Part shown: positions 19,585 through 20,184 of the stretch, one piece after another
Layout: each line of letters starts with the position of its first letter
Position numbering within the stretch: position 1 is the first letter of the stretch
Assembly (NCBI RefSeq): GCF_900104925.1
Contig: NZ_LT629735.1
Location: forward strand, 372,291-404,290
Direction: 5' to 3'
Source of the DNA: Opitutus sp. GAS368
GTDB taxonomy: Bacteria; Verrucomicrobiota; Verrucomicrobiia; Opitutales; Opitutaceae
DNA length: 32,000 nucleotides
Made by a program: the position numbers and the translations under genes
The notes under the pieces: model-generated
What the model saw: the letters and a program-made list of their open reading frames with translations, nothing else
Databases searched by the model: none
Told to the model about the DNA's origin: nothing

Positions 19585-20184
19585 ATGAACCGCGAAGTCG
19601 CCATCACCAACCGCCACCCACGCCTGCGCTTCCGCCGGGCGGAGGTGGCGCGTGTCATTCACGTTCTCGATACCGGTTTCGTGAAATCCCCTCTGGAGAG
19701 GGGCCTGTCGGCCATAGGCTCGGCGACGGCTGATGCCGCAAAGCGCCGGGGGGTGTCGGCGGTCCCGGCCGGCGAACTCTCCCTCGTCTTCCTCACCGAC
19801 CCGGCGCTGGCGAAGATCCACGGCGATTTCATGGCCGACCCGACGGCGACCGACGTCATCACCTTCGCGGGCGAGCCGACGGCCCTGGGCTCCGAAGCCT
19901 TGGCGAAGGAGGCCGGCCTCGCCGGCGAGATCTGCGTCTCGGCCGACACGGCCGCTCGGTATGTAGGGGCGTCCCTTGTGGACGCCCGCGGGCGTCCACA
20001 AGGGACGCCCCTACAGGAAAAATTCTCCGCCGAACTGACCCTCTACGTCGTGCATGGCTGGCTCCACCTGGCCGGCTACGACGACCTGCAGCCCGCCAAG
20101 AAGCGCCGCATGCGCGCGGCCGAGGCCCGGGCGATGAAGCTGTTGCGGGCGGCGAAAGCCGTGCCGGAATTTCGCCTGGCCTAA
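19585..20184 (+). CDS. ybeY: YbeY-type rRNA maturation endoribonuclease carrying two in-frame repeat insertions
   Basis: The motif is VVHGWLHLAGYDD (consensus HGxLHLxGYDH), with PTDVITF-type upstream blocks (ATDVITFAG) and a position directly after phoH/ybeZ. The protein is 199 aa against a typical ~150-160 aa, and the excess matches the two repeats at 19686-19759 and 19962-20015. Confidence 0.85.
   Translation: MNREVAITNRHPRLRFRRAEVARVIHVLDTGFVKSPLERGLSAIGSATADAAKRRGVSAVPAGELSLVFLTDPALAKIHGDFMADPTATDVITFAGEPTALGSEALAKEAGLAGEICVSADTAARYVGASLVDARGRPQGTPLQEKFSAELTLYVVHGWLHLAGYDDLQPAKKRRMRAAEARAMKLLRAAKAVPEFRLA
19686..19759 (+). repeat. Family 3 ('SPLERG') element, long variant, inside ybeY
   Basis: atcccctctggagagggg + 44-nt structured middle (cctgtcggccataggctcggcgacggctgatgccgcaaagcgcc) + ggggggtgtcgg. 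It is translated as KSPLERGLSAIGSATADAAKRRGVS. Confidence 0.85.
19962..20015. repeat. Perfect 54-bp palindrome (family 4, zero-spacer REPIN-like doublet) inside ybeY
   Basis: tgtaggggcgtcccttgtggacgcccg | cgggcgtccacaagggacgcccctaca. Each 27-nt half is a TGTAG head plus hairpin gggcgtcc-cttgt-ggacgccc. The 54 nt make 18 codons, read as VGASLVDARGRPQGTPLQ. Confidence 0.95.

Follow-up and report, generated by a model that had tools for sequence, protein, structure and literature searches.

Rickettsia palindromic elements (RPE-1 and its relatives, said to have been described by Ogata and colleagues in 2000) are reportedly in-frame palindromic repeats in functional, often essential genes. The repeats that we describe here, in the ybeY gene of Opitutus sp. 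GAS368, resemble them in lying at insertion-tolerant positions but are unrelated in sequence and host, and whereas RPE-1 measures 100 to 150 bp and has no known RAYT association, the elements in ybeY measure 30 to 75 nt and include a REPIN of a RAYT-linked superfamily. A second parallel is Opitutus terrae, which we take to belong to the same family-level lineage, Opitutaceae, as the present genome. The REPs of O. terrae have a GTAG or GTGG head and a 6- to 9-bp stem and form HH and TT dimers 1 to 2 bp apart inside genes for known proteins, and its RAYT genes are flanked by REPs (Di Nocera, De Gregorio & Rocco 2013, BMC Genomics 14:522, PMC3733652), all of which likewise holds here. Intragenic GTAG REPs are most numerous in that species, where the dimers encode 20 to 30 aa (PMC3733652). 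The study covered one genome only, however; ybeY is absent from its list of genes with intragenic REPs, and it contains neither site-specific turnover between species nor tandem or nested refilling of one codon position, nor three repeat families in one 155-aa core (PMC3733652). REPIN-RAYT systems as published combine inverted REP doublets that form a long hairpin and reach tens to hundreds of copies with a transposase gene flanked by its own REPs, the REPINs being extragenic and a genome typically having one RAYT (Bertels & Rainey 2011, PMC3116915). Compensated arm differences (e.g., CCCAGC.../GCTGGG versus CTCAGC.../GCTGAG) are common to those systems and to the REPINs found here, whereas RAYT-REP pairs number at least seven in this genome and in-frame doublets occur in about 20 of its genes. 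Because in-frame REPs have already been described in O. terrae and the Rickettsia elements are similar, the in-frame decoration of genes with REPs or REPINs in Opitutaceae is of a known kind, and one that may be regarded as analogous to RPEs; what sets the present case apart is an unusually clear hot spot with species-to-species turnover.

The gene that carries these repeats lies in the window, by which we mean the whole 32,000-nt stretch of DNA that was analyzed (contig NZ_LT629735.1, positions 372,291 to 404,290), and the features discussed below are collected in Table 1. Canonical YbeY proteins (E. coli 1XM5, S. aureus 7Y7O, and A. aeolicus 1OZ9) are zinc enzymes with an H-x3-H-x5-H site that take part in 16S rRNA 3' maturation. 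The product of the present gene scores 62.1 bits against the Pfam YbeY profile (cut-off 25; E value 6e-17) and retains the family's fold, its first two His ligands, the invariant Thr (T89), and the linkage of phoH with ybeY, and its reading frame contains no stop or frameshift. It differs from the canonical proteins in having D167 as the third ligand, Met83 in place of Arg59, Lys172 and Arg177 in place of Glu129 and Glu134, and three repeat-encoded loops. A second ybeY, whose possible existence had been raised as a point to check, was not found: a profile search that covered all of the genome (one contig of 4.15 Mb, 100% complete) returned one match only. The explanation that we consider likely, judging from the sequence comparisons below, is that this ybeY would be a functional orthologue in which a REPIN and units of two other hairpin families ride as passenger DNA in three surface loops.

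Table 1. Positions of ybeY, its inserts, and related features (window coordinates unless marked as genome coordinates)
Feature	Position	Strand	Description
phoH	18549-19523 (predicted call)		upstream neighbor of ybeY
GGAG-headed REP doublet	19527-19576		fills the phoH-ybeY spacer; outside the protein
ybeY CDS	19585-20184	+	199 aa plus stop; single copy; Pfam PF02130 match
Diverged patch	19620-19680	+	ungapped, directly upstream of insert 1; apparently an imported allele segment
Insert 1, "SPLERG" hairpin unit (75 nt)	19685-19759	+	residues 34-59, KSPLERGLSAIGSATADAAKRRGVSAV; +21 aa versus short allele
Met83 codon	19831-19833	+	aligned to the "gate-keeper" Arg (E. coli Arg59)
Insert 3 (30 nt)	19882-19911	+	residues 100-109, ALGSEALAKE; +10 aa
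Insert 3 hairpin core (23 nt)	19891-19913		TCCGAAGCCTTGGCGAAGGAGGC
Insert 2, perfect 54-nt REPIN	19962-20015	+	residues 126-144, (Y)VGASLVDARGRPQGTPLQ; two inverted GTAG-headed REPs; net +13 aa
Metal-site motif HGWLHLAGYDD	20053-20085	+	H157, H161, D167
DUF502 gene	20372-21034		downstream neighbor of ybeY
REP-flanked RAYT-like genes	genome 1185314, 1775323, 3921901, 4061010, 673061, 477324, 854313
In-frame REPIN peptides in other genes (loci L072, L074, L076, L077, L078)	genes at genome 770431, 1048712, 2095916, 3048823, 4109705

The inserts were defined by an alignment of the coding DNA of this genome (G000) with that of 13 congeners. Compared with the insert-free YbeY of a close relative (G012), the protein has about 44 additional aa, in line with the excess of about 45 aa given in the earlier note, and both of the repeat insertions claimed there are real; the alignment, however, contains three in-frame inserts and not two, the one overlooked being insert 3, which is present only in G000 among the 14 aligned genomes. 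With up to 3 mismatches allowed, the hairpin core of insert 3 is found 18 times in the genome, against an estimated chance expectation of about 0.01. Insert 1 is one long-variant unit of a hairpin repeat that we call "SPLERG," is 91 to 96% identical to about 14 dispersed genomic copies, and is open in one of its three forward frames, namely, the one used in ybeY. The core of this repeat, CCCCTCTGGAGAGGGG, occurs in 50 genomic copies, mostly as inverted pairs, and about 14 of these lie inside a MITE of about 205 nt, itself present in at least 12 copies with 20-nt terminal inverted repeats (TIRs), CTAGCACTACTCCGTCAGGT (e.g., genome 2238100-2238310 and 3315700-3315900), and having as its interior an inverted pair of one short and one long "SPLERG" unit. 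That insert 1 is a transposed MITE was considered and rejected: the ybeY copy is the internal 75-nt unit, and because the TIRs are absent, we class it as a repeat unit and not a whole MITE. A diverged unit of the same repeat, missed by the strict search for its core, is translated as ESPLEEGGPPGRGV in the neighboring nuclease-helicase gene (21957-24554), at window positions 22235-22280.

Insert 2 is a palindrome of 27 + 27 nt with fully (100%) complementary arms and no spacer, amounting to exactly 18 codons. Each arm consists of T-GTAG followed by an 8-bp stem (GGGCGTCC/GGACGCCC) and the 5-nt loop CTTGT, and the 84-nt segment that contains the insert has a folding energy of -61.6 kcal/mol. The 26-nt arm, here called the type A REP, has 18 copies in the genome compared with none for a reversed control pattern. 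Insert 2 therefore has three of the features of a REPIN, namely, a GTAG-type head with a short stem-loop, an inverted doublet forming one long hairpin, and membership in a multicopy family that is dispersed and chiefly extragenic. Two of its three frames are open, the third beginning with TAG, and most of the other in-gene REPINs that we examined are likewise read in the GTA-GGx (Val-Gly) frame. A simple insertion was rejected for insert 2, given that 60 nt stand in the place of 21 nt of the empty alleles; the net gain is so small because about 14 nt of the ancestral loop is missing, and at least one further event is therefore needed at this site. A search of Rfam over window positions 17000-22500 gave only subthreshold microRNA-like matches on palindromes, which are generic hairpin artifacts, and none on insert 1 or 3.

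In AlphaFold2 models, the inserts appear as decorations of loops that separate conserved secondary-structure elements. For the G000 protein, the model is of moderate quality only (pLDDT 66.9), and the stretches below 50, at residues 40-53, 91-111, and 130-136, coincide with the three inserts, which are placed between H18-31 and E63-70, between E90-95 and E112-119, and between H120-126 and the catalytic helix, H144-162. Its top Foldseek matches are nonetheless all YbeY structures (7y7o, 1xm5, 1oz9, and 1tvi; probability 1.00, TMt 0.51 to 0.66). A natural congener allele that lacks inserts 2 and 3 and has only a short unit at site 1 was modeled with a pLDDT of 90.5 and a pTM of 0.89 and gives TM scores of 0.84 to 1oz9, 0.76 to 1xm5, and 0.72 to 7y7o, so that both models have the YbeY fold. 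The insert-poor model, taken together with the low confidence over the inserts, therefore indicates an intact core with the inserts as loop decorations. The loop at site 3 is naturally long in S. aureus YbeY. These models and the intact frame bear out the earlier suggestion that a housekeeping gene here tolerates structured insertions in its loops, of which there are three.

The REPs of this genome form dozens of families with GTAG, GTGG, or GGAG heads and 8-bp stems, with up to 81 copies each, and a shuffled control for the REP search yielded scattered singletons only. Counting the 725 REPs that belong to families of at least 6 members, 650 (90%) fall outside the genes predicted by a home-made codon-usage caller (3,303 genes, with ybeY called correctly), although these genes make up 86% of the genome. 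About 47 predicted genes contain REPs, and about 20 of these hold doublets; five proteins, namely, an SNF2 helicase, an AcrB-type pump, MeaB, malate:quinone oxidoreductase (Mqo), and an Rsm22-type methyltransferase, have in-frame REPIN peptides of 18 to 24 aa within their Pfam domains (loci in Table 1). The genome has 12 matches to Y1_Tnp (IS200/RAYT-like), and 7 of these genes have inverted copies of a REP family on either side, each gene with a family of its own, which is the classic RAYT arrangement and makes this genome unusually rich in multiple RAYTs. Two identical copies of a 152-aa IS200-type gene product are also encoded. The RAYT nearest to type A, at genome 3921901, is flanked by GTAG-GGGCGCCG-CTTGA, and none of the REP-flanked Y1_Tnp genes of the genome is flanked by the exact type A REP.

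REPs are also dense around ybeY, as the doublet that occupies the spacer before it (19527-19576) makes plain. This doublet and another at 17277-17326, both GGAG headed, are exact reverse complements of each other, lie 2.2 kb apart, and bracket the HIT-phoH genes; the one at 17277-17326 falls inside a predicted minus-strand ORF (approximately 16732-17739). Two 85-nt doublets of the TGTAG-GGCGGGAT type (17810-17894 and 21801-21885), with 27-nt arms and a 27-nt spacer, flank the block from HIT to a recO-like gene, and their family also flanks the RAYT at genome 1775323.

All three loops are polymorphic across the genus, and the inserts are not private to this genome. Site 2 is filled in 113 of the 116 close homologues in which it is readable (∼97%) and then carries 20 to 55 aa; the three short cases are two empty sites of 15 aa, which is the ancestral length and found also in seven other families of the order, and one 16-aa deletion footprint (YVGAPLQ). 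The peptides encoded by REPINs at this site form seven classes, each with 12 to 19 members; two classes stand in tandem in seven proteins, and in the ybeY of one congener (G019, locus L024) one REPIN is nested in the loop of another, giving a 159-nt segment within the CDS whose predicted folding energy is -117 kcal/mol. At site 1, the alleles fall into at least five classes, and site 3 is filled in 7 of 118 homologues. In a tree of phoH DNA, G000, with type A at site 2, is sister to G010, with type D (support 100/98); next out come G012, which is empty with the ancestral-like ARTHRRD, and then G016 (type C) and G002 (type A). Copies of the type A arm number 18 in G000, 27 in G002, 3 in G010, 0 in G012, and 4 in G016, while those of the type D arm number 97 in G010, 36 in G012, 21 in G000, 7 in G013, and 0 in G016. 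For these two families, the ones that were counted, the occupant of site 2 belongs to a REP family abundant in its host, though the match is imperfect, since type D occupies the ybeY of G013, whose genome contains just 7 copies of that REP. These patterns point to a site that has been refilled repeatedly, a hot spot with turnover from species to species.

Recombination seems to have contributed to site 1. The ungapped patch of about 60 nt directly upstream of insert 1 is only about 55% identical between G000 and its sister G010, compared with 92 to 98% over phoH and the initial 35 nt of ybeY, and beyond the patch the identity returns to about 90%. Among 120 homologues, the sequence classes of helix 1 go together with the alleles at site 1. 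Insert 1 and its diverged flank thus probably reached this genome by recombination import. An import of the whole ybeY gene as the explanation for the empty allele of G012 was rejected, since the ybeY genes of G012 and G010 are alike outside site 2; only the 60-nt patch in G000 looks imported.

The course of events that we favor, in which RAYT-driven insertion, neutrality of the encoded peptides, and recombination are all inferred, would run as follows. Insert 2 belongs to the REP superfamily that in this genome is tied to at least seven genes for RAYTs (IS200-like tyrosine transposases), and inserts 1 and 3 are units of two other dispersed hairpin families. Each insert would by chance have been free of stops in frame, have changed the length by a net multiple of three, and have fallen in a loop between conserved elements, so that the protein would still fold and selection on an important gene would keep the frame open. 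Once a REP was in the loop before the catalytic helix, the site would have become a landing pad, at which related species have come to show new occupants, tandem pairs, nested elements, decayed copies, and internal deletions; an existing REP possibly attracts new ones to site 2, and homologous recombination would further shuffle the alleles between lineages.

The alternative that best withstands the data, though we think it has only a small chance of being right, is that the inserts are under selection, with the hairpins acting in the phoH-ybeY mRNA (in stability, pausing, or processing) or the peptides tuning contacts with uS11, Era, or the 30S subunit. The high occupancy of site 2 and the perfect symmetry of its palindrome, which in G000 has zero mismatches and is identical to the G002 copy at 53 of 54 positions compared with about 85 to 92% identity in the flanks, could reflect selection for hairpin or peptide. 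Insert 1, moreover, immediately precedes the edge strand ELSLVFL, the counterpart of the uS11-tail-binding strand of E. coli YbeY, in which T42 and R44 are implicated in uS11 binding (10.64898/2026.08.26.747336). Yet at least seven unrelated REPIN sequences and decayed, nonpalindromic remnants serve equally, and the folding energies of six remnants are only -7 to -23 kcal/mol, though they reach -40 kcal/mol in L020. Empty alleles of ancestral length also persist in several lineages, and the peptides are of low complexity and modeled as disordered. The high occupancy is itself explicable as a ratchet, exact losses that keep the frame being rare.

A single ancient insertion at site 2 in the ancestor of the genus, diverged in place without any hot spot, is very improbable. 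Basal lineages do carry longer nonpalindromic FVG.../...Q.KF segments that resemble old, decayed copies, but the occupant types match multicopy REP families of their hosts exactly or nearly (the perfect copies number 29 for the type D arm in G010 and 6 for the type A arm in G000), genomes 94% identical in phoH carry type A, type D, and an ancestral-like empty site, respectively, and tandem and nested double elements occur. The types, the differences between sisters, and the REP counts of the hosts therefore do not fit one insertion that diverged in place, a reading that the family counts already contradict. We accordingly retain passenger repeats at a recurrently occupied site as the preferred reading.

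The metal site is a separate matter. The earlier note read its motif as HGWLHLAGYDD, and the codons agree (CAT at 20053, CAC at 20065, and GAC at 20083). In HMMER alignments to solved structures, D167 falls on the third zinc ligand, which is the His of GYDH in S. aureus 7y7o and E. coli 1xm5. Since the three-His site that is the hallmark of characterized YbeY proteins is thus replaced here by H157, H161, and D167, we file the protein as a YbeY orthologue of a His-His-Asp subtype and not as a canonical one. The note took GYDD to be atypical, which does not stand for this phylum: Asp occupies the third ligand position in each of the 21 loci of the genus whose sequence covers the motif, in all 7 loci from other families of the order, and in all 25 further loci with a readable motif from across the order, class, and phylum, 53 Verrucomicrobiota loci overall (the variants include GYDD, GFDD, GLDD, GYND, GYID, and GMTD), and in 119 of the 120 closest database homologues. 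The phylum-wide set presumably includes Akkermansia-like lineages (family f21, on our reading). The note had also asked whether GYDD would prove to be the clade-wide norm together with documented activity; the first part is borne out, while for the second our literature search on YbeY in Verrucomicrobia and the PVC group found nothing, including no activity study of a verrucomicrobial YbeY. By these comparisons, the His-His-Asp site appears to be an ancient, phylum-wide trait of verrucomicrobial YbeY, separate from the inserts. That the gene is instead decaying to a pseudogene, or is an assembly artifact, with the Asp ligand and the inserts as marks of lost function, is hardly credible and already contradicted: one small protein does combine three insertions, a changed metal ligand, and a lost gate-keeper Arg, but its frame is intact, it is the sole copy in a complete genome, 46 columns are invariant across 77 homologues (H157, H161, and D166/D167 among them), the same features recur on many independent contigs and genomes, and the Asp ligand is conserved throughout the phylum.

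The surroundings of the ligand differ as well. In 23 of 24 loci of the phylum, Leu, Met, or Val stands at the position of the gate-keeper Arg, and Lys172 and Arg177 (window 20098-20115) align with E. coli Glu129 and Glu134. The uS11 protein of the same genome has a canonical tail, ending in ...PHNGCRPRKRRRV (PHNGCRP, with the NG-Cys), and we found no sign that this tail covaries with the Asp ligand. Snapalysin-type metzincins, with the motif HExxHxxGxxD, likewise have a His-His-Asp variant of a metzincin-like zinc motif, although they are another family with another reaction and serve as an analogy only. The YbeY fold has been likened to that of metzincins (10.64898/2026.08.26.747345). According to two preprints of 2026, YbeY is a zinc-dependent enzyme that makes isoaspartate in uS11 (10.64898/2026.08.26.747336, 10.64898/2026.08.26.747345), and the H124A variant of the E. 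coli enzyme keeps most of its activity, with a zinc KD of 5.8 versus 2.3 µM (10.64898/2026.08.26.747336). In the product state, Cys121 of uS11 displaces His124 from the zinc, and the displaced His124 is then held by Glu129, Glu134, and Arg122 of uS11; Arg59 stacks on the isopeptide (10.64898/2026.08.26.747345). We infer that His-His-Asp would be an ancient variant that still functions, placed at the ligand position that is least critical and most mobile, and the site most likely still binds zinc and acts on the canonical uS11 tail. A more far-reaching proposal, which as a whole we regard as speculative and rather unlikely, is that verrucomicrobial YbeY has a distinct His-His-Asp mechanism in which the labile ligand and the residues that hold it are charge-swapped and that, separately, the loop before the catalytic helix is a true REPIN landing pad.

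Were the first part of that proposal true, there would be another way of releasing the modified uS11 or another metal preference; were the second true, the loop would provide a species-by-species record of RAYT activity and a permissive site for engineering YbeY. A phylum with a His-His-Asp site and without the gate-keeper Arg would in any case be a natural test of which active-site residues matter, and for annotation, the Asp ligand should not be taken as a sign of a dead enzyme. The inserts illustrate the load of passenger sequence that an enzyme core of 155 aa can bear. At a single codon position, a near-universal gene offers a genus-wide series of REPIN insertion, refilling, nesting, decay, and deletion, which may make site 2 a ready-made marker of REPIN-RAYT activity and target choice, both of them poorly understood.
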